Source: Polyangiaceae bacterium
GTDB taxonomy: Bacteria; Myxococcota_A; Polyangia; Polyangiales; Polyangiaceae
NCBI GenBank assembly: GCA_016712345.1
Contig: JADJRH010000002.1
Span: forward strand, 8,466 to 72,465
DNA: 64,000 nt
Reading direction: 5' to 3'
In this document: piece by piece, positions 1 to 18,625 of the stretch
Numbering within the stretch: position 1 is the stretch's first letter
Layout of the letters: every line of letters begins with the position of its first letter
Translations under genes and position numbers: made by a program
Notes under the pieces: model-generated
Databases searched by the model: none
What the model was told of the DNA's origin: nothing
Seen by the model: the letters and a program-made list of their open reading frames with translations, nothing else

Positions 1-274
1 CGAAGCGACGAAACCAATGAACCAATGGAGCTCCATTCAATGGATCTCCACTCAACTTCACCGCACCACCTGACATACTATTCAGAGCAGTAGAAAAATC
101 CGCCTCACAAACATGCTTCTTGCCAAGTTCAGGATCCCAACCGAAGCGTAAGATTCCGGCAGCAAATTCGCCGGATGTGGCGCAAAAACAGGCACAACAA
201 CGCTTTCTCACTCCCAAGATTGACGGCGCCTTCTGAGAAAAAACATGAGCGCCTCTACCCAGAAAATTCTGTGG
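1..274 (-). repeat. 3' part of an ORF-less cassette, family N4 (truncated by window edge)
   Basis: Matches the last about 270 nt of cassettes 57150..58311, 58413..59591 and 60894..62061. Confidence 0.6.
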
Positions 275-375
275 GCCCAACGTGGTATTCTGCTGCGGGC
301 AGGCGGCGCAAGCAGAGCGGACGAAGGACGCTCTGCGCAGCAAGCCTGACCGACAGCAGCAATACCTGGTTGGAC
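275..375 (-). other. attC site 1 (family B)
   Basis: GCCCAAC...GTTGGAC boxes. Arms GGTATTCTGCTGCGGGCAGG / CCTGACCGACAGCAGCAATACC. Extra unpaired bases in the 3' arm. Confidence 0.7.
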
Positions 376-857
376 ATCCCAAGCTCCGAGCCCCACCGTT
401 TAGGATGAGGCTGAGACATGGTAGCTGACCGACGCGTCGTATACAACACGGAATCACGGAGGACACGGAGGAGCACGGAGGATTTGGGTAAAAAGACGAA
501 TCGAAACGCTAAGCCATGTCGTTGAGCACGTGCCGACAAGAAAGTCGATGAGGGTGCCGCGAGCCGAGGAGCAGCGCATCGTAGGGAGCGTCCAACCCAT
601 GCGCTGGTCGATGGCGCAGGGCAGGGCGTCGAGCCCGAGCGAGGTGGTGAAGGGGCAGGTGAAGGGGCAGACCAAAGCGGACGAAGCCAAGGGAGCGGCT
701 GCGCTCCACGGCCGTCCCGCCGCCTCTGACGCACGGGTGAAAAGAGCAAAGAGGAATCGCTGTTTTCTGGGTGAAATTGGGAGGCATCGGGGGGAGCACG
801 AAACCGACGGTCGAATGGACGCAACTCGAAGAGGGCCAAAACCGATAGATCTTCAGG

Positions 858-953
858 GGTGTCCGCAAGGGCCGGCCGGGGAGTCGCCCAGAAAGAGGAC
901 TCGAAGAGAGCAGGGCGGAGAGGGCGACTCCCCGGCCGGCCCTTGCGGACACC
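858..953. repeat. Perfect 32-bp inverted repeat (hairpin with 32-nt loop) upstream of GxxExxY gene
   Basis: GGTGTCCGCAAGGGCCGGCCGGGGAGTCGCCC ... GGGCGACTCCCCGGCCGGCCCTTGCGGACACC. Copies lie near 26425..26520 and 37160..37255. Confidence 0.85.
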
Positions 954-1056
954 CTGCGAGCCAATCGAGCGCGCCGCGTCGAAAAGTTGCGCCCAATGGG
1001 TAGGAATGGTCCTCCCCCGAAGCCCTGAAACCACCCGAGAACAAGAGCGTCTCCCC

Positions 1057-1431
1057 ATGCTGTTATACAAGGAGTTGAGTCAAGAGGTGGTGGGAGCGGC
1101 GTTGGAAGTGCACCGTCACCTGGGGCCAGGTTTGCTGGAGTCGGCCTATGACCATGCGCTATGTCATGAGCTTGGGCTTCGACGGCTGCACTACCGTCGA
1201 CAAGTGGAAGTGCCAGTCCACTACAAGGGCGTGGTACTCGGCTCGTGGCTGCGCATGGACCTTTTGGTCGAAGAGCGAATCGTCGTGGAAGTCAAAGCGG
1301 TCGAACAGTCTCTACCCATCCACGGTGCTCAACTGCTGACTTACCTTCGACTCAGTGGTTATCGCGTCGGTCTGCTGATAAACTTCAACTCGTTACATCT
1401 GAAAAGTGGCATCGTGCGTCGGGTGATCTGA
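1057..1431 (+). CDS. GxxExxY protein (PD-(D/E)XK nuclease-like, TIGR04256-type), copy 1
   Basis: 124 aa beginning MLLYKELSQEVVGAALEVHRHLGPGLLESAYDHAL...LLINFN, the canonical GxxExxY family pattern. Identical copies lie at 26624 and 37358. Confidence 0.8.
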   Translation: MLLYKELSQEVVGAALEVHRHLGPGLLESAYDHALCHELGLRRLHYRRQVEVPVHYKGVVLGSWLRMDLLVEERIVVEVKAVEQSLPIHGAQLLTYLRLSGYRVGLLINFNSLHLKSGIVRRVI

Positions 1432-1470
1432 ACGATCTGACTGTCAAGTTGCCTTACTCACATAGGGTAT

Positions 1471-1637
1471 GTCCAACGTGGCATTCAGCCGCAAAGGCCG
1501 CGTGCCGCAACGTGTCAGGTGGGAAGAGGGAAGCCGCCGAGCCACATCCGTAAAACTCAAAAAAAGTGCTCGGCGGCGACCCGCGCGAGACGTGACCGGA
1601 TGCGACGGCCTTTGTCGGCTGCAATGCCGAGTTAGGG
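1471..1637 (-). other. attC site 2 (long family L, 167 bp)
   Basis: GTCCAAC...GTTAGGG boxes. Long imperfect palindrome GGCATTCAGCCGCAAAGGCCGC ... GCGACGGCCTTTGTCGGCTGCAATGCC. Confidence 0.65.
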
Positions 1638-1690
1638 GGCTCGACCATCTTTTGTTGACCGTTCGAACGCGTACACATTTGATTCAGTGA

Positions 1691-1918
1691 CTAAGCCGCG
1701 GTTTTTGTATCAGTCCACTGAACTTTTAACTGTTTTCGAGTTTGCGCACAATCGCGAAGGTACAAGTTGATCAAAGTTTGATAGGGCATAGAGAGACTTT
1801 CCGCGAGGTTCTTGAAGTAGGAAATGGTTTCTTCGTCAAGTCGGATAGTGACCTGTTTTTTGAGTCGTTTCGCGTAGGGGTTTGGGCGTGCGTTGGAGAA
1901 GTCGTAGTTTTTTCTCAT
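1691..1918 (-). CDS. brnA: BrnA-family antitoxin (type II TA)
   Basis: About 75 aa: RKNYDFSNARPNPYAKRLKKQVTIRLDEETISYFKNLAESLSMPYQTLINLYLRDCA. ATG at 1918 (the ORF track starts at an alternative GTG at 1927). Overlaps the brnT stop codon. Confidence 0.7.
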   Translation of the reverse strand: MRKNYDFSNARPNPYAKRLKKQVTIRLDEETISYFKNLAESLSMPYQTLINLYLRDCAQTRKQLKVQWTDTKTAA

Positions 1919-1923
1919 GATGG

Positions 1924-2211
1924 TCACCGTGAATTGTATTGTTCTTGTTCGTTGGAGGTGGCGCGCCGAGCGGAAATAATGCGGATGACGTCATCTTGGC
2001 CGCGATAACAATGGCAGACGACAAGCATGTTGGCTTCCGAGCTGAGACCGAGCAAGATGAAGCGGTCCTCGTCGTCCGAATGGTCTGGGTCGTCGATCAG
2101 CAAGGCGTTGTCATCGGCGAACACCGACCGCGCTTCTTCGAAGGAGACTCCGTGCTTGCGCCGGTTTGACGCAGCCTTTTTGGGATCCCACTCAAAACGC
2201 AAACTCGACAT
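1924..2211 (-). CDS. brnT: BrnT-family toxin (DUF497 / RelE-like ribonuclease)
   Basis: 95 aa: MSSLRFEWDPKKAASNRRKHGVSFEEARSVFADDNALLIDDPDHSDDEDRFILLGLSSEANMLVVCHCYRGQDDVIRIISARRATSNEQEQY, which matches DUF497. ATG at 2211. Confidence 0.8.
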   Translation of the reverse strand: MSSLRFEWDPKKAASNRRKHGVSFEEARSVFADDNALLIDDPDHSDDEDRFILLGLSSEANMLVVCHCYRGQDDVIRIISARRATSNEQEQYNSR

Positions 2212-2795
2212 ACCGTCGAGGATACCTACATCGTATTTACACGCAAGAAAAAAATCCGTTAAACGCACCACAATGCGAATCGGATGCAGCGACTTACAAA
2301 CATTGCGGTGGTCACTTCACTATACCATTCAGAAAGAACGCAAGAGGGGTGAATCGCTGCGTTATTACCGCTCGCGAGCTTTCCTGCCGTGTGCCGCTCG
2401 CTGCATCAATCTCACGACTGCTCGGCTTGTCCGTGTTCCTCGTCAAAGGGCGGGTGCGAGTCGAGTCGTCAAGTAGAGTCGAAACGGCTCACCGAGATGT
2501 ATAGAAAACGTGAACGGACCACGCGAACGCGCAATATTGAGATCTGATATCAAGTCGGCAAGGTCATCAATGTGCGGCGTAGTTTCCGTCAAAACGACGA
2601 TGGTATCCGCCCCAAAGCGTAAGCACCGTTGTCTGGTCACGGTTCCTTCGTTGCCCTCGTATACGCCAAACTTGACATGGTTGGGTTTCGCCCTGCACTG
2701 TTCGGCACGCTCGACGAGTCAGGTTTCTGCTCCACTTGCTTGGTCAACAGGTTACCTCAACAAAAATGCCATCATAACGCATTGGGTTCCTGCCC

Positions 2796-2896
2796 CCTTA
2801 ACGTGGCAATCTGCTGCAAGCCCCAAAAGCAAGCAGAGCGGCCGAAGGACGCTCTGCGCAGCGTTGGGGATTGCCAGCAGCATTGCCGAGTTAGGT
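2796..2896 (-). other. attC site 3 (family A)
   Basis: CCTTAAC...GTTAGGT boxes. Arms GGCAATCTGCTGCAAGCCCC / GGGGATTGCCAGCAGCATTGCC. Central CAGAGCGGCCGAAGGACGCTCTG hairpin. Confidence 0.75.
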
Positions 2897-3980
2897 ACCT
2901 GACTCCCAACAAAGTGTTTTCGAATTTGTAACGCCGCACGCCGCGTTTTGAAGGGAGGAGCCGATTCCCAATTGTGTACACGAGGCAAACTCACGAACGC
3001 CGATTCGGTGTGTACACAAATCAGATTTCGAGACGCCAAGCCCACCGAAAACCTCCGCGCGAAACGAATACTACCTGTCTCAACCGGCCTGTCAACGCTT
3101 TCGAGCATGTCACCAGCGCCACCAAAATTGACGCCCACTTCACGCAACGTGGCACACGACGGGAAAGCCAAACCGCGACCACGCGGTTTGGTCCTTGAGA
3201 CAAATCTGAACGCGCCGAAATGTTGGCGAGATGGAAAACCTGCCTCTCCGAAACACAAGCTGGCTTTCGCCGAAGGCGTATAGGAAACGCTGACAATCAG
3301 GCCGTTTCGTCGATCTACCCACGCGCTCCCAACTGCGCGGTCTTCGCTCCGAATGTGTACACGGAGTGTCGACGGACACGAGGCCTCTCAGGGGCGAACC
3401 CGAAGTACAAGTAAGCTCATCCGAAGGCGCAAATGAAGCGTTTTGAGCAACGCTCCGATTCAAAAAAGAACAATGCCGCACCGAATATCAAGCGAAGCGC
3501 GATATTTGTGTACACGCACTGCGGCCACGCGTGCCGGCGTGTTTGCGTTGTTACACGAACGCCCTGAAAAGAAGCGAAGCGCGACAAATGTACCCATAAA
3601 AACCTACCCATGGCCGATTGCGCACATGTGGGTACACACAAACTTTTCGGACGAAATGAGCGCCTATCAAAGCAAAGTGATTTTCAAATGAGTCATACTG
3701 CCCACGATGTGTCGCATCGAACCCAAATCCGTCAACTCCAAATCTACCCACGGTCGGACATGGTTAGATCATGAATTGATAATGGATTAGAAGATACCCC
3801 ACCGGATGAACTACCGGTTGTCGCGGGAGTATAATTTTTGAACTTACCCACCCTCAACCCGAGCGCCGGTGAAGAACGATCAGGACATGCAAAATCCCTC
3901 GCAAAAGAGCCTCCGCGCACCAACTACCCACGTGCGCTTTCCGACAAAATTCAAGCGATTCTACCCACAAAATTCTGTGT
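2897..3980 (-). repeat. ORF-less cassette payload, family N1
   Basis: No ORF is conserved across copies. Shares TTTTCGAATTTGYAACGCCGCAC, TGTGTACAC palindromes, AAGCGAAGCGCGA and CTACCCA motifs with at least 9 other cassettes. Confidence 0.6.
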
Positions 3981-4080
3981 ACCTAACGTTGCGGTGTGCT
4001 GCGGCCGGGCGGCGCAAGCAGGGCGGACGAAGGACGCCCTGCGCAGCAAGCCCGGCCGTCAGTACCAGCGCATGGTTGGG
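3981..4080 (-). other. attC site 4 (family C)
   Basis: ACCTAAC...GTTGGGC boxes. Arms TTGCGGTGTGCTGCGGCCGGGCGG / CCCGGCCGTCAGTACCAGCGCATGG. Confidence 0.7.
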
Positions 4081-5183
4081 CACCTTGTGCTGGATGGGTT
4101 GTTTTCGAATTTGCAACGCCGCACCCCGCGTTTTGAAGGGAGAACGCCACCGCGACAAATGTACACAAGGCCATCTCACTGGCGATGATTGAATGTGTAC
4201 ACTTTTCAGCCTTGCCGCTATCAACCCCACCGTGTCCTCCGCACAATCCGTAGACTATCTGTATCAAAATGGCGGTCAAGCGCAATCTGCCCTACGAGGG
4301 TGATGCACTCGGGGTGCGCGGCCCGAACGCCGACGTCTCAAAATGTCGTGCGTACACTCGACCCACTCCGACACCGAAAATAAATTCATGAGGCCGAGCC
4401 GCGGCCTACGCGCGGCTTGGCCCTTCGAGTGCGCACGAGGGGTATCGAAGGGAGTGAGTTCTCGACGCGAGGGACCGAAATACAAGTTGGCTGACCCGAA
4501 GGCGCAAAATGAAGCGTTTCGCAAACCCGTGCGGCTAGAAAAAATACACCACGGGATCTGACATCCAGCGAAGCGCGATATTGCGTACACGCTCCGCGGC
4601 TGCGCACGCCAGCGTGTTTCCGTTGTGTCGCGGCGCTGCGAAAACAAGCGAAGCGCGACAAGTGTACCCATCAAGACCTGGCCAATGCCATTTCGTACAC
4701 GTGGGTACGCATGAACCTCTCGGGGAGAAATGGACCGCTGACCGATGAAACGAAGCTGATAGTTGAACAACCGCGCCCCCAAACAGAGGCACAGAAATCA
4801 GTCGAATCTCCACCTTCGAATCTACCCACTTCACCAACCAACTTGAACGCAAATTGAAGGTGAAGTGATGCAGCAGCTCCGACACAATTCTGGGTCGCTT
4901 CTTTTGTACAATATGACCGCGGATCTACCCATTCAATTGATCGACGTTGCACCAGTTGAGAAGAGGTAGATGCGAGAGAAAGTCCTTCAAAATGCGCCTC
5001 TACCCACCCGCAGGGCGTCAGTCTCTCTGTAAAAACAAACCTACCCATCGCGCCACTTCATCGAGCCGTTGGTGAGGAACAGTCAAGGTGCGCGCCGACC
5101 TTAAGAAAAGCGTCTCGATCGGTCCACTACCCATACCGCTTTCAGAAAAAAACGAAAACGACTCTACCCACAAAATTCTGTGT
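4081..5183 (-). repeat. ORF-less cassette payload, family N2
   Basis: Homologous to 20081..21179 and 59693..60791. Confidence 0.6.
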
Positions 5184-5287
5184 GCCCAACGCGCGCTTGT
5201 GCTGCAAGCCCCGAGAGCAAGCAGAGCGGCCCGACAGGGACGCTGTGCGCAGCGTCGGGGCTTGTCAGAACCAAGCGCTGGTTGGGC
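5184..5287 (-). other. attC site 5 (family G variant)
   Basis: GCCCAAC...GTTGGGC boxes. Arms TTGTGCTGCAAGCCCC / GGGGCTTGTCAGAACCAAG. Confidence 0.65.
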
Positions 5288-5312
5288 AGCATTCTCTCCC
5301 TATCGATATTCA

Positions 5313-6437
5313 CTACCAATCCTCCTCGCGTATAACTTCTCGCTCAATAAGGAGCGCCAAAGCATCCGCCATGTCGGTGAGTATCAATCGATCTTCTTTG
5401 GGTATGAGAGCGATCCTGCCCCGCTCACTCTGAGATGTCGTGGCCTGGTTATCAATTCGAATGGTAAGGGAACGAAACTCATAGCTCCACGTGCCAACCA
5501 TCCTGGCTTCCGACCCATGAAAATGCGCGTGGAGCTTGTGAGGCGTCGACGTGTACAGCGTTTTACCCGGCAGAAAGCGGAACGCGCATCCTCCTACGCC
5601 GCCCTTGCGAACGGTTCGAAGAATAGACTCCAATACTGCAAGTGACATGTCCGCCAGTCGCGGATCAGCACGAAACTCCAGCTTGCTTTCTTCGACGTAC
5701 ATACGAGCGCCGTAGAAGTAGATGCTTGACTCACCCACGTCGTGTTGGGGGCGACCAATAAAATTCCATTGTACATCGCCTGATTGTTGTTGCATTCCGC
5801 CTTGCAGATACTGGTGCTCGACTCCCAGCTTCTGGAGCGCCTCCGCGGTTATCTCGATGATTCGCGACGGCGGCTCGGTCGCACCGCTCTCGCGAGTGAG
5901 CGTCACACGGATGTCGTCAATGAACGCCGAGTGGCGAGCCAATGCTCCAGTTCTCGCGCCCGACTCGGTGCGAAAGAACTCGTTGTATTCATCTAGTGAA
6001 AATACCTGCGCGTGCTGATGTCCGAACTCCTCATTGGACACCGCGATCAAATTATCTAGGCCGTCGGGCGACGTTATGTTGAATCCTTGAAGGAGGCTGA
6101 TCGGTGGTGGAAGCTGCGTCAGGTCGACCCCGAAGATGCCGACCGGGATGACCCGAACTCCTTTCGCGTAAACGAAGCCAGCTTCGAAGTACACCCACCT
6201 TGAATCGAGTGACGCTGGCGATAAGAAGACGATCATAAGGGTAGCTCGTTCAAGAGCTTCCTGGACCTTGTGTACCCAATTTCGCCCGAGTGGAATGCTC
6301 TGACCGTCACTGGATAGAAACACGTCAATGGTTCCACCGGTCTTCGCCACGAACATCTGCTTTAGACGAGTAAGTCTGTCTTTGTCCCGCGGTGAGTGGC
6401 TGAAGAAAACCGTGGGTTTGCTCTTGCTCTTGCTCAT
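5313..6437 (-). CDS. TIR-domain protein with uncharacterised about 230-aa C-terminal domain
   Basis: 374 aa. N-terminus VFFSHSPRDKDRLTRLKQMFVAKTGGTIDVFLSSDGQSIPLGRNWVHKVQEALERATLMIVFLSPASLDSRWVYFEAG is a bacterial TIR pattern, including the conserved Glu. First gene of a three-gene minus-strand operon inside a single cassette. Confidence 0.75.
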   Translation of the reverse strand: MSKSKSKPTVFFSHSPRDKDRLTRLKQMFVAKTGGTIDVFLSSDGQSIPLGRNWVHKVQEALERATLMIVFLSPASLDSRWVYFEAGFVYAKGVRVIPVGIFGVDLTQLPPPISLLQGFNITSPDGLDNLIAVSNEEFGHQHAQVFSLDEYNEFFRTESGARTGALARHSAFIDDIRVTLTRESGATEPPSRIIEITAEALQKLGVEHQYLQGGMQQQSGDVQWNFIGRPQHDVGESSIYFYGARMYVEESKLEFRADPRLADMSLAVLESILRTVRKGGVGGCAFRFLPGKTLYTSTPHKLHAHFHGSEARMVGTWSYEFRSLTIRIDNQATTSQSERGRIALIPKEDRLILTDMADALALLIEREVIREEDW

Positions 6438-6579
6438 CTTCTAACCGTGTGATGTAGCAGCTTCTGCCGTGTTCCCCAATGTCTTGCCTGCCCAACGTTG
6501 TTTTCTGCTGTGGACGGGTGAGCAACGCGAGCCCGGCCATCAGCAGCAAAACAGTGTTCGGCGGCTCTCCCGTTCTCGC

Positions 6580-7080
6580 TCATGTTCCACGGTGAGTATT
6601 CTTGTGTTCCGACGTGGTGTAGATTCGTGCTCGGCACTCTTGTTCCAGAATGCGCCGGATCTCATCCTTCGAGCGGGTACCGAGCAATTTGTCAGTGAGC
6701 TCGCGCCGCGACACGACATGGTGATGAGCCAGACCAGCGACGCGCTTCTTTGAATGGCGAACTGCTGCTACTTGTCGTGCAGTGGCACTGGTTTCGTGGT
6801 GGGATGGGTCATACTTGCAGTGGTCGAGCTTTACTACGCCGTCCACTTCGCCATCCGCCGTCCATCTCCAAAGCGCCCAATCTGAGATAATGTGGCGTGC
6901 AATCTCTCTGCAGGGGTGGCGACTGTCCTGTGCCGTGCACACGGCTCGGAAAATTATTTCGATTAGCCATTCCCGGGCGCCGGGACTCAGTCGGGCCGCG
7001 ACCTCGGGAGGCACGTCCGTGTGCACGGACTCCGTGCCTGCCGTCCTTCTGCGCCTCTTAACCGGTGACCGATGGGGCAT
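6580..7080 (-). CDS. Hypothetical Arg-rich protein (middle gene of TIR operon)
   Basis: 166-aa ORF lying between the two flanking genes, starting 27 bp after the upstream gene's stop. No family recognised; start and reading frame are uncertain. Confidence 0.4.
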   Translation of the reverse strand: MPHRSPVKRRRRTAGTESVHTDVPPEVAARLSPGAREWLIEIIFRAVCTAQDSRHPCREIARHIISDWALWRWTADGEVDGVVKLDHCKYDPSHHETSATARQVAAVRHSKKRVAGLAHHHVVSRRELTDKLLGTRSKDEIRRILEQECRARIYTTSEHKNTHRGT

Positions 7081-7106
7081 ATGTCAAGTTTCCAGGTTTT
7101 AAAAAA

Positions 7107-7871
7107 CTACCGGGCGGCCTTGCGCTTACTCATGAAGTCAATCAGATCTTTGACGGCAGCGTCGGCAAGAGCGTCTGTTGCCACGTCCGCAGCGCGCACT
7201 CGACGGACCTCTACTCCTTCGTGCGTGAGCGGAATAAGACGCTTGTCCGCATCCGCTGGCGTCTCGTGATGGAAGGTGTCGCCATCGACTTCTACGACGA
7301 AGGTAAGCCCCTTAAAGATCACGACAAAGTCTGGCTCAAGGCGATGGTAGCTCTTCCCGACTCGTACAAACACGGGCAAAGGTGCAACCGCCAGCCGCGC
7401 ACGCTGCATTGCCTCAAACAGCGTAATTTCGGCACGCGAGCGAAACAATAAGCCACGGTGTTGCTGAGATGCGATATTGTCACTACGCACTCGGCCCTGG
7501 TTAGTGACCCCCTCCCCGCGGACGAATTTGAGCGCGTCCTCGCGCCAACCCTCGGGCGCTGGTACAACCGTTGGGCTCACGCTGACCCATCCGAGACAGT
7601 CACCAGGCGACGCGGAGAAGAAGGACTGGCCTACCTCGAGCACTGCGCTCTCTACCTGCTTCACCTCGGCCTCGGTGAGGGCGTGGAAGATGTGGATAGG
7701 GAGTCCAATGCGTAGGCCCCAGTTGTCCACGCCCCAGTCCGTATCGAGATGCTCGAACCTGCTGCCAATGCCCTCCAGGACGACCGCGATAGACCTGGTG
7801 TCGCCACGGATCTTGAGCGCTGCGGTGACAGATGCGAGAAAGTCCTCAATTGGAAAGGGACGATTGCTCAT
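7107..7871 (-). CDS. Protein with C-terminal DUF559/Vsr-like (PD-(D/E)XK) endonuclease domain
   Basis: 254 aa. C-terminal half LFRSRAEITLFEAMQRARL...PDFVVIFKGLTFVVEVDGDTFHH...DADKRLIPLTHEGVEVRRV matches the DUF559 endonuclease pattern (EVDG...H...D..R). N-terminal domain is unknown. Confidence 0.6.
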   Translation of the reverse strand: MSNRPFPIEDFLASVTAALKIRGDTRSIAVVLEGIGSRFEHLDTDWGVDNWGLRIGLPIHIFHALTEAEVKQVESAVLEVGQSFFSASPGDCLGWVSVSPTVVPAPEGWREDALKFVRGEGVTNQGRVRSDNIASQQHRGLLFRSRAEITLFEAMQRARLAVAPLPVFVRVGKSYHRLEPDFVVIFKGLTFVVEVDGDTFHHETPADADKRLIPLTHEGVEVRRVRAADVATDALADAAVKDLIDFMSKRKAAR

Positions 7872-7939
7872 CTTGCTTCCTCCCTACTTCTCTCTTCTCT
7901 TCAACGAATTGACCAATTGAACTGGGCGCAGCCCTGCCC

Positions 7940-8030
7940 GCTGAACGTGGCAATCTGCTGCAAGCCCCAAAAGCAAGCAGAGCGGCCGAAGGACGCTCTG
8001 CGCAGCGTTGGGGTTTGCCAGCAGCATTGC
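7940..8030 (-). other. attC site 6 (family A)
   Basis: Degenerate CTGAAC box at the 5' end, GTTAGGT box at the 3' end. Family A arms. Confidence 0.65.
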
Positions 8031-9068
8031 CGAGTTAGGTACCTGACTCCCAACAGAGTGTTTTCGAATTTGTAACGCCGCACGCCGCGTTTTGAAGGGA
8101 GTAGCCGATGCCCAATTGTGTACACGAGGCAAACCGACGAGCGCCGACTCGGTGTATACACAATTTTGACTTCGCGCTGCCAGACCCACCGAGAACCTCC
8201 GCGCGAAACGAATACTACCCGTCTCAACCGGGCTGTCAACGCTTTCGAGCATGTCACCAGCGCCACCAAAATTGACGCCCACCTCAAGCAACGTTGTCCA
8301 AGATCGGGCAGACCAAACCGCGACGGCCCGCTCTGTCCACGAAAAACGCACGAAGGTGCCGAAATGTTGGCGAGATGAAAACCAACCTGCGCGAAACAGG
8401 AAACGCCTACAAGCGGGCAGTTTCGTTGATCTACCCATGCGCTCCCAACACGGAGTGTCGACGGACACGAGGCCTCTCAGGGGCGAACCCGAAGTACGAG
8501 GAAGCTCATCCGAAGGGGCAAATGAAGCGTTTTGAGCAACGCTCCGATTCAAAAAGAACAATGCCGCACCGAATATCAAGCGAAGCGCGACACTTGCGTA
8601 CACGCACCGCGGCCACGCATGACAGCGTGGTTATGTTGTTGCGCGAACGCCGCAAAAAGAAGCGAAGCGCGACAAATGTACCCATAAAAACCTACCCATG
8701 GCCGACTGCGCACATGTGGGTACACACAAACTTTTCGGACGAAATGAGCGCCTATCAAAGCAAAGTGATTTTCAAATGAGTCATACCGCCCACGGATGTG
8801 TCGCATCGAACCCAAATCCGCCAACTCCAAATCTACCCACGGTCGGACATGGTTAGATCATGAATTGATAATGGATTATGAAGATACCCCACCGGATGAA
8901 CTACCGGTCGTTGTGGGAGTATAATTTTTGAACTTACCCACGCTCAACCCGACCGCCGGTGAAGAACATCAGGATATGCAAAATGCCTCGCAAAAGAGCC
9001 TCCGCGCACCAACTACCCACGTGCGCTTTCCGACAAATTCAAGCGATTCTACCCACAAAATTCTGTGT
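8031..9068 (-). repeat. ORF-less cassette payload, family N1
   Basis: Collinear with 2897..3980. Confidence 0.6.
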
Positions 9069-9235
9069 ACCTAACGTGGCATTCAGCCGCAAAGGCCGCA
9101 TCCCGCAACGTGTCAGGTGGGAAGAGGGAAGCCGCCGAGCCACATCCGTAAAACTTAAAAAAAGTGCTCGGCGGCGCCCCGTGCGAGACGTGACCGGATG
9201 CGACGGCCTTTGTCGGCTGCAATGCCGAGTTAGAC
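9069..9235 (-). other. attC site 7 (family L)
   Basis: ACCTAAC...GTTAGAC boxes. Long palindrome as in site 2. Confidence 0.65.
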
Positions 9236-9565
9236 CTCTGGGGGCTCATATTTCCCACGACCGGGCCAGTGTATTCCGAATCTGAATCTGTAGTCAACGG
9301 TGAAAAAAAGTTACGTTCCATTCCGCACAGTTGAGTCGCCTTGCAGTCTAATTTTTCGAATCGCGTCCATTTTGCGCAACACCCCCAATGGCCTTGATGG
9401 ATACTGACTTTCTGACTTTTCCACTCGACTGTCAGGTTAGAAAGGCGGTGTACACAACCACGGTGTTGTGTCAATCAGTTTATACAAAATAAAACGGAGC
9501 CGCCCGGTGCTTGCAACACCGAACGGCCCCTTGACCTGCCCCCCGCAGCAACGGAGAGCAAGCCC
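9236..9565 (+). promoter_or_regulatory. Conserved about 330-bp leader/promoter region of sigma-factor cassette (paralog 1)
   Basis: Conserved in all six sigma cassettes. Contains GTCAAC-N15-CGTTCC, an ECF -35/-10-like element, and an ACACAAC-N4-6-GTTGTGT hairpin before the RBS. Confidence 0.4.
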
Positions 9566-10324
9566 ATGGAAAAGAATAGTCGTGATTTGTCCGCAGCTCG
9601 AATTTTCGGAGCCGCGAATGCTGTTGAGCCTGAAAATACCGATGAAATCAAGTGGCCGCCAAACGCACCAGACAAGTGGGTCAGGAGCGTGCCGGGTCGC
9701 CGCGGTAACCACCACCCATCGCTCTACTTACCCGAACCACAAGCGCGCGACCTGAATTCACTTCGCCCGGTTATCGAAAGGATCTTGCGCCGACACCGTG
9801 TAACTGCCCGCCACATTCCTGACCTGATTCAAGAGATCTTGGCGGAGTTAATTCGCGTCGCGAGAAGCCGCGGACACAGCAGTCAACCTCCCATCAACTC
9901 AACCGCGTATGGATTTGTTGCGGTGGTAGCCCGTCGCGTGGCGCGAAACCGGTCGGTGCTCAAAGCCCTCGGCGAACGGGAAGATCTCGGTGAATTGTGG
10001 GATCTGCTCGATTGTGAGGAGTCTCCCCATTCAACTTCCACGGGCGCGACTCCACTGGACTTGATAATCGAAAAGGAAGAAGAACAGAAGTTGACCGATC
10101 GACTCGACTGGTTGAGTCAGGCCACGAAGTCGAGATATTGGCGCGCTTTTTACGCCTTCACGATATTGGCCACGCCGATTGAAGACATCGCCGAAAGTGA
10201 AAATGTCAGTCCAGCCTCCATTTACGACCGTGTTCGACGAGCACGCGAAGACATCAAAGCCGCGCTCCAACGCGACAGAGCGAGCCGCGCTCCAAAGATG
10301 GACCTGAAACCATCCCAAACCTGA
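9566..10324 (+). CDS. ECF-type RNA polymerase sigma-70 factor (cassette paralog 1)
   Basis: 252 aa. Region-2-like segment HIPDLIQEILAELIRVARS...YGFVAVVARRVARNRS. Region-4 HTH segment RYWRAFYAFTILATPIEDIAESENVSPASIYDRVRRAREDIKAAL. Six paralogs are present in the window. Confidence 0.7.
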   Translation: MEKNSRDLSAARIFGAANAVEPENTDEIKWPPNAPDKWVRSVPGRRGNHHPSLYLPEPQARDLNSLRPVIERILRRHRVTARHIPDLIQEILAELIRVARSRGHSSQPPINSTAYGFVAVVARRVARNRSVLKALGEREDLGELWDLLDCEESPHSTSTGATPLDLIIEKEEEQKLTDRLDWLSQATKSRYWRAFYAFTILATPIEDIAESENVSPASIYDRVRRAREDIKAALQRDRASRAPKMDLKPSQT

Positions 10325-10492
10325 CCTGCCCAATTCTGGCCCGCCGCCCGCGCGTTTATAAATCCCCAGAAATCCGCCATTGTTATCCAATCCGACAGTC
10401 AAGTCAGATTGTCAGGCCTCCCTGATTGTGTGATTGGGTATGCCGCAAAATCTGAATGGGCTATACCATTTTGGAAAGTGGCTACGTTGCAG

Positions 10493-10593
10493 GTCTAACG
10501 TGGCAATCTGCTGCAAGCCCCAAAAGCAAGCAGAGCGGCCGAAGGACGCTCTGCGCAGCGCTGGGGATTGCCAGCAGCATTGCCGAGTTAGGT
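10493..10593 (-). other. attC site 8 (family A)
   Basis: GTCTAAC...GTTAGGT boxes. Family A arms. Confidence 0.75.
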
Positions 10594-11629
10594 ACCTGAC
10601 GCCCATTAGAGTGTTTTCGAATTTGGAACGACGCACGCCGCGTTTTGAAGGGAGTAGCCGATTCCCAGTTGTGTACACGAGGCAAACGGACAAACGCCGG
10701 TTGAGTGTGTACGCAAATCAGATTTCGCGACGCCAAACCCACCGAAAACCTCCGCGCGAGACGAATACTACCTGTCTCAACCGTCTTGTCAACGCTTTCG
10801 AGCGCGTCGCCAGCGCAACCAAAATTGACGCCCACCTCAAGCAACCTGGTCCAAGATCGGACGTACCAAACCGCGACGCCGACCGGCAGCTCTGGCCACG
10901 AAAAAATGCACGAAGGTGCCGAAATGTTGGCGAGATGAAAACCAACCTGCGCGAAACAGGAAACGCCTACAAGCGAGCAGTTTCGGTGATCTACCCACGC
11001 GCTTCCAACACGGAGTGTCGACGGACACGAGGCCTCTCAGGGGCGAACCCGAAGTACAAGTAAGCTCATCCGAAGGCGCAAATGAAGCGTCTTGAGCAAC
11101 GCTCCGATTCAAAAAGAACAATGCCGCACCGAATATCAAGCGAAGCGCGATATTTGTGTACACGCACTGCGGCCACGCGTGCCGGCGTGTTTGCGTTGTT
11201 ACACGAACGTCCTGAAAAGAAGCGAAGCGCGACAAATGTACCCATAAAAACCTACCCATGGCCGATTGCGCACATGTGGGTACACACAAACTTTTCGGAC
11301 GAAATGAGCGCCTATCAAAGCAAAGTGATTTTCAAATGAGTCATACTGCCCACGGATGTGTCGCATCGAACCCAAATCCGTCAACTCCAAATCTACCCAC
11401 GGTCGGACATGGTTAGATCATGAATTGATAATGGATTAGAAGATACCCCACCGGATGAACTACCGGTCGTCGCGGGAGTATAATTTTTGAACTTACCCAC
11501 CCTCAACCCGACCGCCGGTGAAGAACGATCAGGACATGCAAAATCCCTCGCAAAAGAGCCTCCGCGCACCAACTACCCACGTGCGCTTTCCGACAAAATT
11601 CAAGCGATTCTACCCACAAAATTCTGTGT
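10594..11629 (-). repeat. ORF-less cassette payload, family N1
   Basis: Collinear with 2897..3980. Confidence 0.6.
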
Positions 11630-11796
11630 ACCTAACGTGGCATTCAGCCGCAAAGGCCGCATCCCGCAACGTGTCAGGTGGGAAGAGGGAAGCCGCCGAG
11701 CCACATCCGTAAAACTCAAAAAAAGTGCTCGGCGGCGACCCGTGCGAGACGTGACCGGACGCGACGGCCTTTGTCGGCTGCAATGCCGAGTTAGAC
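11630..11796 (-). other. attC site 9 (family L)
   Basis: ACCTAAC...GTTAGAC boxes. Long palindrome. Confidence 0.65.
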
Positions 11797-12125
11797 CTCT
11801 GGGGGCTCATATTTCCCACGACCGGGCCAGTGTATTCCGAATCTGAATCTGTAGTCAACTGTGAAAAAAAGTTACGTTCCATTCCGCACAGTTGAGTCGC
11901 CTTGCAGTCTAATTTTTCGAATCGCGTCCATTTTGCGCAACACCCCCAATGGCCTTGATGGATACTGACTTTCTGACTTTTCCACTCGACTGTCAGGTCA
12001 GAAAGGCGGTGTACACAACCGCGGAGTTGTGTCAATCAGTTTATACAAAATAAAACGGAGCCGCCCGGTGCGTCAACACCGAACGGCCCCTTGACCTGCC
12101 CCCCGCAGCAACGGAGAGCAAGCCC
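11797..12125 (+). promoter_or_regulatory. Conserved sigma-cassette leader (paralog 2)
   Basis: Same conserved block as 9236..9565. Confidence 0.4.
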
Positions 12126-12884
12126 ATGGAAAAGAATAGTCGTGATTTGTCCGCAGCTCGAATTTTCGGAGCCGCGAATGCTGTTGAGCCTGAAAATACC
12201 GATGAAATCAAGTGGCCGCCAAACGCACCAGACAAGTGGGTCAGGAGCGTGCCGGGGCGCCGCGGTAACCACCACCCATCGCTCTACTTACCCGAACCAC
12301 AAGCGCGCGACCTGAATTCACTTCGCCCGGTGATCGAAAGGATCTTGCGCCGACACCGTGTAACTCCTCGCCACATTCCCGACCTGATTCAAGAGATCTT
12401 GGCGGAGTTAATTCGCGTGGCGAGAAGCCGCGGGCACAGCAGTCAACCTCCCATCAACTCAACTGCGTACGGATTTGTTGCGGTGGTAGCCCGTCGCGTG
12501 GCGCGAAACCGGTCGGTGCTCAAAGCCCTTGGTGAACGGGAAGATCTCGGTGAATTGTGGGATCTGCTCGATTGTGAGGAGTCTCCCCATTCAACTACAA
12601 CGAGCACCACTCCACTGGACTTGATAATCGAAAAGGAAGAAGAACAGAAGTTGACCGATCGACTCGACTGGTTGAGTCAGGCCACAAAGTCGAGATATTG
12701 GCGCGCTTTTTATGCGTTTACCATTTTGGCCGTGCCAATCGAAGACATCGCCGAAAGTGAAAATGTCAGTCCAGCCTCCATTTACGACCGTGTTCGACGA
12801 GCCCGCGAAGACATCAAAGCCGCGCTCCAACGCGACAGAGCGAGCCGCGCGCCAAAGATGGACCTGAAACCATCCCAAACCTGA
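12126..12884 (+). CDS. ECF-type sigma-70 factor (paralog 2)
   Basis: Same architecture as paralog 1, with a few substitutions. Confidence 0.7.
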   Translation: MEKNSRDLSAARIFGAANAVEPENTDEIKWPPNAPDKWVRSVPGRRGNHHPSLYLPEPQARDLNSLRPVIERILRRHRVTPRHIPDLIQEILAELIRVARSRGHSSQPPINSTAYGFVAVVARRVARNRSVLKALGEREDLGELWDLLDCEESPHSTTTSTTPLDLIIEKEEEQKLTDRLDWLSQATKSRYWRAFYAFTILAVPIEDIAESENVSPASIYDRVRRAREDIKAALQRDRASRAPKMDLKPSQT

Positions 12885-13050
12885 CCTTACCCAATTCGAG
12901 CCCGCCGCCCTGCCTTTGCCGGGGCCGACAAAAATAGCCATTTCATTCAATCTGATAGTCAAGTCGGATTGTCAATTTTCCCGATTGGGTGATTGGGAAT
13001 GCCGCAAATCTGAATGGGCTATACCATTTTGGAAAGTGGCTGCGTTGCAG

Positions 13051-13144
13051 GTCTAACGTGGGGCTGTGCTGTGGCCGCGCCGCAGCGCGCGCGGCACCGC
13101 CGCGCGCGCTGCGGCGCGGCCATCTGCACCAGCCCGGAGTTGGG
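13051..13144 (-). other. attC site 10 (family P, GC-rich palindrome)
   Basis: GTCTAAC...GTTGGGG boxes. GCCGCAGCGCGCGCGGCACCGCCGCGCGCGCTGCGGC palindrome. Confidence 0.6.
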
Positions 13145-13228
13145 GGGCATCTTGCGGTGACGCTCTGAGTCCATGTCGTACCCGTTCCATAAATGAGATT
13201 CTCATCAGAAGGCGGTAACTTGCCAAGG

Positions 13229-14260
13229 CTATTCCAGCATCACCTCACTGCTGCAATGGGCACAGCGAGTTCCGCCCCAGTACCATATTCCGCCGAATCG
13301 CGCACAGAGCTTGTCACCGACGCGGACCAATGCCCCATACAGCAATGCGCCGAAGATCCACCAGTATGAGCGCCACATCCAGCCAGCCAATAGCGCGAGC
13401 AGCAAGAATGGCAGGCCAGCAGCATCGAGTCCGTCTGCACGAGGATACACGCGGAGGCTCCGCTGGCCGCAGCTCGGACACTCCTTCGGTGCTGTTCGCC
13501 ATGCGATGGTCAGAGTCAGCACGGCGGCAACGAGCGTTCCTGACGCGTATAGCAGCATGCACAGACCCAGCATACGCCAGGTGATGGGATGGAGTCCCTT
13601 GGCGGAGACGAAGCCCGGCTCCATCTCGAGAAACCCGTGCAGGTTGATGGTTTCCCACGTTCCTTCCAACCCCTTCGATGGGAACCCCCAATGGTATACT
13701 TCCAACGACAGCGTGTCGAGCGAACCCATGGCAAACGCCGCGAACGCGAACATGACGCCACCATGGACGCCAAGAGAGAGGAGGGCACTCTGGACCGCTC
13801 GGCAGTGCATGGTGTAGTCTATGGCCCCACCTTGGGTTACGAGACGGTTCGCCCTGAGGGACATGGTCGTGCCGAGTGTAGCGAAGCAAAGCACTGTCAA
13901 GACCAGGAGCCAATTGGCTTCGCGAGCTGCATCGATAGCTACGAGGATGCATCCTAGATGTCCGGCGTAAAGAGCGCCGCTTGTAAATGCCGTTGCGGGC
14001 ACCCAAAGTGGCATAGGCAGATGCTTTATCGTGCTCGGCGAAGCGCGATGCACAGCCGGAGCATCAGTGACGGGGTGCGCGATGGAATGGGTCCAGGCTG
14101 CGCGTGCCTTCACTGAACCGAGACGCCACATGATTGCGCCAAGGAGGATGCCAGCCGTGAGCGCCACGAGCAGCACGCGAAGTGGGGAATTGAGCACGCG
14201 AAGGTACAGGGGATTGAGCATCACCAATCCCCGTCGATGAGTGCGGTCAGGGTGCGCCAC
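13229..14260 (-). CDS. Polytopic membrane protein (about 7 predicted TM segments, Cys-x2-Cys pairs), copy 1
   Basis: 343 aa with several long hydrophobic stretches plus CPSCG and CAHC motifs. An identical copy lies at 37950..38981. Confidence 0.6.
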   Translation of the reverse strand: MAHPDRTHRRGLVMLNPLYLRVLNSPLRVLLVALTAGILLGAIMWRLGSVKARAAWTHSIAHPVTDAPAVHRASPSTIKHLPMPLWVPATAFTSGALYAGHLGCILVAIDAAREANWLLVLTVLCFATLGTTMSLRANRLVTQGGAIDYTMHCRAVQSALLSLGVHGGVMFAFAAFAMGSLDTLSLEVYHWGFPSKGLEGTWETINLHGFLEMEPGFVSAKGLHPITWRMLGLCMLLYASGTLVAAVLTLTIAWRTAPKECPSCGQRSLRVYPRADGLDAAGLPFLLLALLAGWMWRSYWWIFGALLYGALVRVGDKLCARFGGIWYWGGTRCAHCSSEVMLE

Positions 14261-14276
14261 ACTCGGCGTTGCCTAG

Positions 14277-14383
14277 CCCCCCCAACGTGGGGTTGTGCTG
14301 CAAGCCCCGAGAGCAAGCAGAGGGGCGCGTCAGCGACGCTCTGCGCAGCGTCGGGGCTTGTCAGAACCAACCCCTGGTTGGAC
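14277..14383 (-). other. attC site 11 (family G)
   Basis: CCCCAAC...GTTGGAC boxes. Arms GGGGTTGTGCTGCAAGCCCC / GGGGCTTGTCAGAACCAACCCC. Confidence 0.7.
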
Positions 14384-17103: not shown

Positions 17104-17130
17104 CACACGTATGCGTTCACTTCTTCGTCC

Positions 17131-18598: not shown

Positions 18599-18625
18599 CA
18601 CACGTATGCGTTCACTTCTTCGTCC

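Follow-up and report, generated by a model that had tools for sequence, protein, structure and literature searches.

The element at positions 2796 to 2896 is an attC site, the type of sequence at which integron cassettes recombine, and belongs to a set of 47 in the sedentary chromosomal integron of a Polyangiaceae (Myxococcota) bacterium. We regard our preferred explanation as a whole, including the fold of the site and the role that we infer for its distal part, as likely. Within the window, i.e., the whole 64,000-nucleotide stretch that was analysed, a 47-cassette array fills positions 1 to 62060. A fold-based finder and a covariance model run over the whole window located 47 attC-type hairpin sites at intervals of approximately 1.0 to 2.2 kb, and nhmmer converged on the same 47; the earlier note had counted 46. 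A cruder, ungapped arm-complementarity finder that was used earlier missed most of the sites and was superseded. The window also contains one truncated half-site and, adjoining an integrase gene, an attI junction:

62628-63641, minus strand: intI, integron integrase of 337 aa (TIGR02249, 395.7 bits against a cutoff of 265)
62052-62070 (break at about 62058), minus strand: attI/first-cassette junction, GCCCAAC/GTGTAATGGG on the plus strand and ...ACACG/TTGGGC on the minus strand, the slash marking the break

The integrase is 100% identical to 'integron integrase [Polyangiaceae bacterium]' from a metagenome-assembled genome (MAG), and its gene is transcribed towards the array, co-directionally with the cassettes. 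On the minus strand, Pfam-supported cassette genes (TIR, SIR2 and PAAR) end just upstream of attC sites.

Every one of the 47 sites starts with xxxxAAC and ends with GTTxxxx, the commonest pairs being GCCCAAC/GTTGGGC and ACCTAAC/GTTAGGT. The GTTRRRY of one site is the reverse complement of the RYYYAAC of the next in 43 of the 46 neighbouring pairs, as against 6 of 46 when the two ends of the same site are compared. Of one core site, the outer 6 nt are part of the neighbouring cassette, and hence the R box shows complementarity inside a cassette and not inside an integrated site. Inverse core sites, this cassette-boundary signature, a hairpin with extrahelical bases, a bottom strand of greater stability and the attI/intI context together characterise attC sites; the integrase, the boundary pairs, attI and the fold all agree with the identification made in the earlier note. 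From these features, IntI is predicted to recombine the sites as folded single-stranded DNA. The integron has the marks of a sedentary one (many cassettes, mutually similar attC sites and the same site type in related genomes), and a chromosomal setting is suggested by the 738-kb length of the contig. Twenty-eight of the 47 cassettes fall into three cargo families, and many are duplicated at 90 to 100% identity.

The fold of the focal site runs, from the outside inwards, through an R box of 7 bp, a short unpaired spacer, an L-proximal stem of 6 bp, an extrahelical C, a second stem of 6 bp, a second extrahelical base, a 10-bp stem, an asymmetric junction (GCNAG/CGCNGC), an 8-bp terminal stem and a 9-nt apex. 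Its parts, with column numbers taken from the alignment described below, are as follows:

2796-2896, plus strand (the bottom strand of the site): focal attC, 101 nt, CCTTAAC ... GTTAGGT; covariance-model score 105.6 bits on the plus strand and 26.9 on the minus strand
2800-2892, plus strand: core AAC..GTT, alignment columns 1-93 (fold and alignment)
2796-2802, plus strand: bottom-strand R' box CCTTAAC, RYYYAAC-like (sequence and neighbour-pair test); crossover is expected between A2801 and C2802, by analogy with described sites (PMC5027507)
2890-2896, plus strand: bottom-strand R'' box GTTAGGT (GTTRRRY), complementing the RYYYAAC of the site at 3981 (neighbour-pair test)
2803-2810, plus strand: unpaired 5' spacer GT and L-proximal stem GGCAAT, which pairs with 2882-2887; the most variable and strongly covarying segment
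2882-2889, plus strand: 3' partner ATTGCC and the unpaired GA of the central spacer (fold and alignment)
2881, plus strand: first extrahelical base, column 82, 16 nt from the end of the site; C in 35 of 35 aligned sites and not the canonical G (PMC2727003)
2874, plus strand: second extrahelical base, column 75, of variable identity (fold and alignment)
2811-2816, plus strand: inner arm segment CTGCTG, pairing with CAGCAG at 2875-2880; as conserved as the centre
2817-2826, plus strand: 5' half of the long stem, CAAGCCCCAA, pairing with 2864-2873; variable and covarying
2864-2873, plus strand: 3' half of the long stem, TTGGGGATTG (fold and alignment)
2827-2833, plus strand: 5' half of the junction, AA-GCAAG, with G30, C31, A33 and G34 invariant (alignment)
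2857-2863, plus strand: 3' half of the junction, CGCAGC-G, with C58, G59, C60, G62 and C63 invariant; with the 5' half it makes an asymmetric AA/GCA internal loop
2834-2856, plus strand: the 'central hairpin', CAGAGCG (2834-2840), 9-nt apex GCCGAAGGA (2841-2849) and CGCTCTG (2850-2856); the apex core CCGAAGG is a C-GAA-G mini-hairpin

The 'central hairpin' is thus made up of two elements of this lineage-specific attC family, its distal stem and its variable terminal structure (VTS).

The plus strand of the window is the recombinogenic bottom strand of these sites. This assignment follows from several observations that point the same way: in duplicated cassettes each attC is linked with its right flank, the cassette genes lie on the minus strand, and the extrahelical bases of the folds (columns 82 and 75) are on the 3' arm. 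The plus-strand fold is the more stable in all 47 sites, by a mean of 4.8 kcal/mol; the literature average in favour of the bottom strand is 2.12 kcal/mol (PMC5027507). Purines occupy 73% of the unpaired positions on the plus strand and 33% on the minus strand, wobble pairs are asymmetric in the direction that favours folding of the plus strand (25 G.T against 9 A.C cells), and covariance-model scores are approximately 100 bits on the plus strand and at most 42 on the minus strand. GC skew is an unreliable guide to replication orientation inside a cassette array.

To assess covariation, 35 distinct 93-nt cores were aligned without gaps; the alignment is conditioned on this length class, and 11 of its 35 rows owe their ascertainment to the centre pattern itself. 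Across the whole fold, 24 of 37 pairs were changed on both sides, a number that none of 500 shuffles equalled; for the arms alone this was so for 16 of 27. Pairing was retained in 94.5% of cells, compared with 77.8% in shuffles, and the covariation score was 0.436 against 0.134 for the shuffles, of which none of 500 reached the observed value, and at most 0.10 for slid controls. The earlier note described arms that differ completely yet remain complementary, and the arm strings that it quoted are present in the sequence. The complementarity is borne out by these figures, but 'completely' goes too far: the inner arm CTGCTG/CAGCAG (columns 12-17/76-81) has a pairwise identity of 0.80 to 0.85, level with the centre, T11, C82 and A83 are invariant in the 35 aligned sites, and mean column identity in the 93-nt class is 80%.

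The other sites of the array differ in length, arms and centre:

275-375, plus: 101 nt, apex GACGAAGGA, arms GGTATT/AATACC
1471-1637, plus: 167 nt, another long centre, without the junction motif
3981-4081, plus: 101 nt, apex GACGAAGGA, stem CAGGGCG/CGCCCTG, arms TGCGGT/AGCGCA
5184-5287, plus: 104 nt, variant centre CAGAGCGGCCCGACAGGGACGCTGTG
6490-6562, plus: 73 nt, without the junction motif
7940-8040, plus: 101 nt, A-type (GCCGAAGGA)
9069-9235, plus: 167 nt, long centre
10493-10593, plus: 101 nt, A-type
11630-11796, plus: 167 nt, long centre
13051-13145, plus: 95 nt, perfect GC-rich rod, without the junction motif
14280-14383, plus: 104 nt, B-type apex, arms GGGGTT/AACCCC
15638-15741, plus: 104 nt, B-type, arms GCTGTT/AACAGC
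17131-17234, plus: 104 nt, B-type, arms GCTGTT/AACAGC
18626-18729, plus: 104 nt, B-type
19980-20080, plus: 101 nt, apex GACGAAGGA, arms TGCGGT/AGCGCA
21180-21283, plus: 104 nt, B-type
22300-22400, plus: 101 nt, apex GACGGAGGA, stem CAGGGCA/TGCCCTG
23588-23688, plus: 101 nt, A-type, unique cassette
24961-25061, plus: 101 nt, A-type
27038-27141, plus: 104 nt, B-type
28160-28263, plus: 104 nt, B-type
29281-29366, plus: 86 nt, other centre
30682-30770, plus: 89 nt, A-type arms GGCAAT/ATTGCC and A-type junction, but terminal hairpin TGCGCTTGCGCA
31932-32032, plus: 101 nt, apex GCCGAAGGA, stem CAGCGCG/CGCGCTG, arms GCCGTT/AACGGC
34171-34274, plus: 104 nt, B-type
35292-35380, plus: 89 nt, hairpin TGCGCTTGCGCA
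36641-36741, plus: 101 nt, apex GACGAAGGA, arms GGTATT/AATACC
37772-37866, plus: 95 nt, GC-rich rod
39001-39101, plus: 101 nt, A-type
40183-40280, plus: 98 nt, hairpin TGGCCGGCGCCGCCGGCCA inside the junction motif
41854-41954, plus: 101 nt, variant centre CGCGGCGGGCGAAGCACGCTGCA
43116-43204, plus: 89 nt, hairpin TGCGCTTGCGCA
44294-44394, plus: 101 nt, A-type
45451-45554, plus: 104 nt, B-type
46807-46907, plus: 101 nt, apex GACGAAGGA, after a SIR2-like cassette gene
48631-48734, plus: 104 nt, B-type
49730-49818, plus: 89 nt, hairpin TGCGCTTGCGCA
50908-51011, plus: 104 nt, chimera with a B-like apex (CAGAGGGGCGCGCCAGCGACCCTCTG) on A-type arms
52264-52367, plus: 104 nt, B-type apex, arms GCTGAT/ATTAGC
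53412-53515, plus: 104 nt, B-type
54559-54659, plus: 101 nt, apex GACGAAGGA, stem CAGGGCC/GGCCCTG
55862-55962, plus: 101 nt, A-type
57049-57149, plus: 101 nt, arms GGTATT/AATACC, stem CAGGGCG/CGCCCTG
58312-58412, plus: 101 nt, type as at 57049
59592-59692, plus: 101 nt, arms TGCGGT/AGCGCA
60793-60893, plus: 101 nt, first (integrase-proximal) cassette

The centre evolves more slowly than the arms. The pattern CAGAGCG-N9-CGCTCTG occurs 11 times, always on the plus strand (GCCGAAGGA as the N9 in 8 and GACGAAGGA in 3), against 0.00 expected from shuffles, and the variant GAGGGGCGCGTCAGCGACGCTCTG occurs 12 times, again only on the plus strand. In the set that was not ascertained by the centre, identity is 0.77 to 0.81 for the centre and 0.53 to 0.55 for the variable arm segments. 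Paralogues of one cassette family (F1) have cargo that is 64 to 78% identical and arms that are 65 to 70% identical, with a centre that matches at 37 of 37 positions, and over 177 cross-family pairs the identity of the centre is 0.85 and that of the arms 0.64. Such a centre is unusual against the general statement that the VTS or loop is the most variable part of an attC site (PMC2727003; PMC8352920), a contrast to which the earlier note had rightly drawn attention. Its description of the central hairpin as invariant does not hold, however: 8 of its 10 pairs covary, five stems occur in the window (CAGAGCG/CGCTCTG, CAGGGCG/CGCCCTG, CAGGGCC/GGCCCTG, CAGGGCA/TGCCCTG and CAGCGCG/CGCGCTG), and 6 of the 47 sites lack this centre, one further motif match being doubtful. 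The most widely kept part is the junction GCNAG...CGCNGC, which is present in 41 of the 47 sites and encloses 13 different terminal hairpins. Pairs G30-C63 and C31-G62 never covary and the unpaired A33, G59 and C60 do not vary, in contrast to the free variation of the pairs around them. In most sites the apex reads G-N-C-GNA-G-G-A, which makes a C-GNA-G mini-hairpin on the bottom strand only, with GAA, GGA or GCA loops closed by C-G and once by A-T. Conversely, three unrelated centres are found on identical GGCAAT/ATTGCC arms.

The 93-nt type is also present in three other Polyangiaceae-related assemblies (MAG ABC1.6, GCA_964268215.1 and GCA_964275065.1) and in several metagenome samples, including neighbouring sites outside the pattern ascertainment. 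In these relatives and metagenomes the stems have changed by compensation, with about ten compensatory variants across relatives, whereas the loop and the junction are unchanged; the junction motif is found in most of the non-ascertained external sites. The integrases of relatives with the same centre are only 57 to 62% identical. In the pattern scan, 5 of 8 genome loci and approximately 10 of 26 metagenome loci were chance matches inside genes and not attC sites, and the source MAG was not among the genome matches. Two Minicystis arrays (L036 and L040) bear other attC types of 66 to 82 nt, and hence the 93-nt type is not universal in the family; no usable array was found in four further relatives (L037, L039, L041 and L042). 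A scan of viral contigs gave no matches, nor did Rfam at the gathering threshold over the whole window.

These comparisons bear on whether the pattern reflects nothing more than a few cassettes having been duplicated very recently, or collapse or expansion of the array during assembly of the MAG. The high identity of many duplicated cassettes, the predominance of three cargo families and the metagenomic origin of the source would all be compatible with such an explanation. However, the A-type centre is found on 8 unrelated families of cassette content and on paralogues with well-diverged cargo, and it recurs in independent assemblies and samples; conservation of the centre is therefore not confined to recent duplicates, and recent duplication alone is contradicted by the cross-family and cross-genome conservation. 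We regard this explanation as hardly credible.

The earlier note proposed that the conserved centre has an added function, for example as a terminator or a host-factor site. It is very unlikely that the hairpin acts in RNA, either by terminating cassette transcripts intrinsically or by stabilising their 3' ends. There is a resemblance to Rho-independent terminators, in that a GC-rich hairpin is followed on the transcribed (minus) strand of one family by a T-rich stretch: the A-family hairpin is followed by CTTGCTTTTGG, 16 of 35 distinct sites have 5 T or more among the 8 nt that follow the stem, a C at column 43 would give the RNA a cUUCGg tetraloop at its apex, and some cassettes have sigma70-like promoters approximately 170 nt upstream of attC. 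Yet the GGTATT- and TGCGGT-arm families and others with the same hairpin lack a T-rich tail (2 to 3 T in 8 nt, 14 of 35), and the tetraloop disappears in sites with A at column 43 (18 of 35) or with a GGA loop; as both column 43 and the middle base of the loop vary, we reject the RNA tetraloop reading. This tail doubles as the 3' arm of the long attC rod. Unlike the terminators, the hairpin has a T tract that is interrupted and not conserved and a loop of 9 nt, it lies inside a 45-bp rod, and its conservation tracks the bottom strand of the DNA and not the RNA. The wobble asymmetry favours folding of the plus strand, which is not the sense transcript. A terminator scan flagged none of these hairpins and its total of 27 is close to the shuffled expectation of 26.2. 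The central hairpin is, therefore, probably not a terminator.

An added function is, moreover, not required, because high similarity from end to end is a known property of the attC sites within sedentary chromosomal integrons (PMC5371416), attC models are taxon-specific, with one for Deltaproteobacteria among them (PMC8352920), and most attC sites of mobile integrons share a conserved 5'-GAA-3' in their bottom-strand VTS (PMC5027507). Both the homogeneous, taxon-specific chromosomal attC and the bottom-strand GAA apex are thus already known. Our preferred explanation is that the integrase would read the arms as a shape and not as a sequence, such that the arms may drift by compensatory change, while a near-constant distal module may nucleate bottom-strand folding and stabilise it over that of the top strand. 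The stability would come from the GNA triloop, purine mismatches of the G.A type and the purine-rich junction, and one and the same module would be inherited by, or exchanged among, all cassettes of the lineage. Mini-hairpins of the GCGNAGC and CC..GG kinds have extraordinary stability (PMC13037366). In the Vibrio VCR, however, replacement of the VTS had little effect on recombination after single-stranded delivery (PMC2727003), so a strong selective role for the VTS is not established, and the six sites in the window without this centre presumably function all the same.

Gene conversion without selection could produce the same pattern. It is possible, although we think it rather less than probable, that short-tract gene conversion or template switching homogenises the middle of the sites and cassette exchange spreads it, with no function involved. 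Mosaic sites are consistent with such concerted evolution: the site at 50908 combines A-type arms with a B-like apex, and a metagenome site (L012) shares the GCTGAT/ATTAGC arms of the B-type site at 52264 but has an A-type apex. Two stems are found in the GGTATT-arm family, of which one is identical to the centre of the TGCGGT family, three attC types occur on one cargo family (F3), and the larger the array of a chromosomal integron, the higher the identity of its attC sites is reported to be (PMC5371416). However, the junction and apex are kept, with compensated stems, despite the divergence of the integrases and in independent metagenomes, and conversion would be expected to homogenise the arms too.

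Folding stability alone does not explain the invariance of the unpaired A33, G59 and C60 or of the non-covarying pairs G30-C63 and C31-G62. One unlikely interpretation is that the junction and apex form a sequence-specific protein site, bound by a host nucleoid or single-stranded DNA-binding factor, by an accessory protein or, as a second contact, by the IntI of this lineage; the protein would control folding, synapsis or protection. Those invariant positions, and a junction motif that persists around so many different hairpins here and in external sites, would fit such a site, but no candidate protein has been identified, bottom-strand stabilisation can explain purine-rich internal loops and the motif is missing from six sites. 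We are similarly doubtful of the broader proposition that the distal module of approximately 37 nt (the GCNAG/CGCNGC junction and the GNCGNAGGA apex) holds sequence-specific information under selection independent of the integrase-bound arms, whether as a putative factor site or as an exchanged folding nucleator.

Among known systems, the array most resembles the homogeneous attC families of chromosomal integrons, such as the VCRs and those captured by the taxon-specific models of Ghaly et al. (2021): it is large, most of its sites have length, structure and much of their sequence in common, the middle included, related genomes carry recognisably the same type and the bottom strand folds better. 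It differs from VCR-like families in its Polyangiaceae host, in sites of 101 or 104 nt and not about 120 to 129 nt, in a near-continuous rod in place of a branched VTS, in the mixture of several attC types in one array, in arms far more diverged than the centre and in an intI that is co-directional with the cassettes. The small mobile-integron sites attCaadA7, attCaadA1 and attCereA2 share the C-G-closed 5'-GAA-3' triloop of the bottom strand, purine-rich unpaired positions on that strand and the geometry of R box, spacer, L box and extrahelical bases; here, however, the GAA sits atop an additional 8-bp stem and a conserved asymmetric junction, approximately 30 bp from the crossover, and the first extrahelical base differs (C, not G). 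The apex cores CCGAAGG, ACGAAGG, ACGGAGG and ACGCAGG contain the C-GNA-G arrangement of the DNA mini-hairpins d(GCGNAGC) and d(CCGAAAGG), which combines a sheared G.A pair with unusual stability of single-stranded DNA, so that by analogy the apex may be similarly stable; unlike in the mini-hairpins, only about half of the sites have C-G as the second closing pair, the others having A.G.

In summary, nothing here, as it stands, departs from known integron logic. If the distal module does prove to be under independent selection, this would be the first attC whose 'variable terminal structure' is a constrained, functional part, and a junction that served as a protein site would add a new layer to integron regulation. 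The observed pattern agrees with a published proposal, by which unpaired features rich in purines lend stability to the bottom strand. Our analysis documents a large chromosomal integron (at least 47 cassettes) in Myxococcota with an attC family of its own; as a covariance model, this family is of use when environmental cassettes are to be assigned to Polyangiaceae-like hosts. The finding also provides a natural experiment in attC evolution, in which the arms drift by compensation at approximately the rate of the cargo while the distal junction and GNA apex stay fixed.

The locus is an integron cassette array, and the following genes are read from it.

62628-63641, minus strand: intI, with Phage_integrase and SAM_4 domains
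5313-6437, minus strand: TIR cassette gene (Pfam)
46939-48582, minus strand: SIR2-like cassette gene (Pfam)
33463-34044, minus strand: PAAR cassette gene (Pfam)
32094-33458, minus strand: 454-aa protein after the PAAR gene, weak peptidoglycan-binding match

The intI ORF scores 395.7 bits against the integron-integrase model TIGR02249 (cutoff 265). Its product is 100% identical to 'integron integrase [Polyangiaceae bacterium]' from a 738 kb MAG contig and 64% identical to the second-closest relative, with the caveat that the window itself comes from a MAG. An attI-like junction near 62058, which reads GCCCAAC and then GTGTAATGGG, closes the array. The site ends show the classical cassette signature: in 43 of 46 cases the GTTRRRY of one site exactly matches, as reverse complement, the RYYYAAC of its successor, while the two ends of one integrated site, as a control, match in only 6 of 46. 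The TIR, SIR2-like and PAAR genes stop a few tens of bases short of an attC; their products and the 454-aa protein resemble cargo of a defence or toxin type. Where cassettes are duplicated, the attC is linked to its right-hand sequence; this and the gene strands place the cassettes in minus orientation, co-directional with intI, so that the window's plus strand is the attC bottom strand. This layout is an 'inverted integrase', transcribed toward the cassettes and in their direction, as in the related loci L035 and L038. Across intI and the 560-nt spacer from its stop codon to attI (62060-64000), plus-strand GC skew is +0.42, as against about -0.03 in the array, and G-runs are many (GGGGCGGGGCG, GGGGAGGGCAAGGG), so this strand may be prone to G-quadruplex formation.

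Three independent detectors (nhmmer, a fold-based finder calibrated for zero false positives and a covariance model) agree on 47 attC sites between 275 and 60893 in a single orientation, all with covariance-model E <= 5e-11 on the plus strand. The cores, measured from AAC to GTT, are 93 nt long in 21 sites, 96 in 14, 81 in 4, 159 in 3, 87 in 2, and 65, 78 and 90 in one site each. A truncated half attC (CCCAACGCGCCAATCTGCTGCGAGG...; 36437-36465), a 5' arm without a 3' partner, lies within the cassette between 35292 and 36641. The window has 11 copies of the motif CAGAGCG-N9-CGCTCTG, all of them on the plus strand (0.00 expected from shuffles), and 12 of the 24-nt variant named in the earlier note, the B-type centre. 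The A-type site at 2796-2896 reads CCTTAAC-GT-GGCAAT-CTGCTG-CAAGCCCCAA-AA-GC-AA-GCAGAGCG and continues directly as GCCGAAGGA-CGCTCTGC-GCA-GC-G-TTGGGGATTG-C-CAGCAG-C-ATTGCC-GA-GTTAGGT. Its geometry is like that of canonical attC: a 7-bp R box, a 5-nt spacer with two bases unpaired, a 3-bp L box, and extrahelical bases 16 nt from the end and 7 nt further inward, the first being C here. The central hairpin singled out in the earlier note is the distal stem plus the variable terminal structure (VTS).

The bottom-strand hallmarks of known attC sites agree with the plus-strand assignment. Unpaired extra bases sit on the 3' arm of the folds, and in all 47 sites the plus strand gives the more stable fold, by a mean of 4.8 kcal/mol (published mean, 2.12 kcal/mol; PMC5027507). 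Purines make up 73% of unpaired positions on the plus strand and 33% on the minus; G.T and A.C cells in the alignment number 25 and 9; covariance-model scores are about 100 bits on plus and at most 42 on minus.

A gapless alignment was made of 35 distinct 93-nt cores, of which 14 came from the window, 11 were pattern hits and 10 were neighbours of external hits that the pattern had not selected; length class and, in part, the search pattern condition this set. A single rod places standard pairs in 94.5% of cells (77.8% when shuffled), with both-sided changes in 24 of 37 pairs. The covariation score of 0.436, against 0.134 in shuffles, was equalled by 0 of 500 shuffles, a statistic that overstates independence because the sequences are related; slid controls gave at most 0.10. 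The arms covary, as the earlier note had claimed. That they 'differ completely' was an overstatement: the inner segment CTGCTG/CAGCAG matches the centre in conservation, and columns T11, C82 and A83 change in no aligned site. Identical GGCAAT/ATTGCC arms occur with three unrelated centres. Nor is the centre 'invariant', since 8 of 10 central pairs covary and compensatory stem variants occur in the window (CAGAGCG/CGCTCTG, CAGGGCG/CGCCCTG, CAGGGCC/GGCCCTG, CAGGGCA/TGCCCTG, CAGCGCG/CGCGCTG) and in external sites (CAGGGGG/CCCCCTG, CAGAGTG/CACTCTG, GTGCGGCG/CGCGGCAC, GCGCAGTG/CACTGCGC).

Mean pairwise identity by segment, non-ascertained set
Spacer and L-proximal stem: 0.55
10-bp long stem: 0.53
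Inner arm segment: 0.80
Junction: 0.81
Central stem: 0.77
Apex: 0.79

The junction GCNAG...CGCNGC, which surrounds the hairpin, is more widespread than any other element, the hairpin included. It is central in 41 of the 47 window sites, encloses 13 kinds of terminal hairpin (12-30 nt) and is found in most external sites unselected by the search pattern. Its two G-C pairs show no covariation at all, and its unpaired bases A33, G59 and C60 never change. Most sites have the apex G-N-C-GNA-G-G-A, with GAA, GGA or GCA loops and C-G closure (one GGA has A-T closure).

Conservation of the centre is not confined to recently duplicated cassettes. Among 18 cargo families, the A-type centre occurs on 8 and the B-type on 4. 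Across 177 cross-family pairs, identity is 0.85 in the centre and 0.64 in the arms, and cassettes of cargo family F1 with TGCGGT or GGTATT arms are 64-78% identical in cargo, 65-70% in arms and 37/37 in the centre. The 93-nt type is also found on three contigs of a second Polyangiaceae MAG (ABC1.6), in GCA_964268215.1 and GCA_964275065.1 (IntI 62% and 57% identical) and on some 16 contigs of several metagenome samples, where neighbouring sites unselected by centre mostly carry the same junction and GNA apex; Minicystis arrays carry other attC types, of 66-82 nt. This sharing across families, paralogues and genomes contradicts recent duplication alone as the cause. The L035 array (GCA_964268215.1) also holds a group II intron reverse transcriptase (RVT_1 and GIIM; 16041-17273, minus strand) oriented opposite to the cassettes; the intron may be of group IIC-attC type.

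A terminator role for the central hairpin, as proposed earlier, is not supported. At least five T follow the hairpin within 8 nt on the transcribed strand in 16 of 35 distinct sites, but only some families are so tailed, 14 of 35 having just two or three, and the T-rich tail doubles as the 3' arm of a 45-bp rod. An RNA cUUCGg loop requires C at column 43, true of about half of the sites. A terminator scan of the window flagged none of these hairpins and found no terminator excess.

The integrase is known to read the R/L box region as structure (PMC2727003, PMC5027507), which would leave the arms free to drift compensatorily. The bottom-strand apex, CCGAAGG or ACGAAGG, is a C-GNA-G mini-hairpin, a form extraordinarily stable in single-stranded DNA (PMC13037366); its top-strand counterpart is a pyrimidine loop. 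Nivina et al. found 5'-GAA-3' conserved in the bottom-strand VTS of most mobile-integron attC sites, and argued that unpaired features rich in purines make the bottom strand more stable and thus play a part in strand selectivity (PMC5027507). We suggest that the distal module of this lineage nucleates and stabilises bottom-strand folding, that it would be retained through purifying selection, and that exchange between sites has probably helped to spread it. Exchange is supported by chimeras: the site at 50908 has a B-like apex on A-type arms, and that at 52264 and a metagenome site (L012) have common arms with differing apices. The strict invariance of the junction nucleotides is left unexplained by a folding nucleator, and for this reason we retain, as a possible minority explanation, a protein contact at the junction, for instance with a host factor.

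Families F1 (60894-62055 and 11 other members) and F2 (2897-3980 and 9 others) form 22 of 47 cassettes, each about 1.0-1.2 kb. They hold no convincing ORF, their translations looking random, and Rfam gave no match; they may be non-coding RNA or regulatory cassettes. The F1 example at 60894-62055 has AAAAGAAGCGAAGCGCGA three times (61346, 61427, 61508; 81-nt spacing), with GCGAAGC within each, modules duplicated about 215-230 nt apart, and GTGTACAC palindromes. Some cassettes contain sigma70-type promoters close to the consensus (TTGACA-16-TAGTAT or TAGCAT) and oriented with the array, those of F2 about 170 nt upstream of attC; promoter-like sites in window 1-20000 number 23, against 8.2 expected. 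Another cargo, in six copies 93-99% identical, has a 252-aa ORF on the plus strand, antisense to the array and without a Pfam match. Three of the copies also have a strong hairpin that resembles a terminator and bears a T tract. This cargo carries three attC types (167-nt, 104-nt B-type and an A/B chimera), which implies attC replacement on constant cargo.

3095-3068, 8239-8212, 10792-10765, 15960-15933, 17454-17427, minus strand: near-consensus sigma70-type promoters
9236-10492, 11797-13050, 14384-15637, 18730-19979, 45555-46806, 51012-52263: six-copy cargo
9530-9496, 12090-12057, 19021-18988, minus strand: terminator-like hairpins in three copies of this cargo

The literature names the VTS or loop as the part of attC that varies most (PMC2727003, PMC8352920), so the earlier premise of a least-conserved centre holds for mobile integrons. 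In sedentary chromosomal integrons the attC sites are known to be highly identical among themselves (PMC5371416). Taxon-specific sequence-and-structure attC models exist, including one for Deltaproteobacteria (PMC8352920). The locus therefore falls within a known kind, that of homogeneous, taxon-specific attC families, to which it adds details specific to its lineage: the site is rod-like and 101/104 nt long, its asymmetric junction is conserved and its first extrahelical base is C; intI is co-directional with the cassettes, and one array mixes several attC types.
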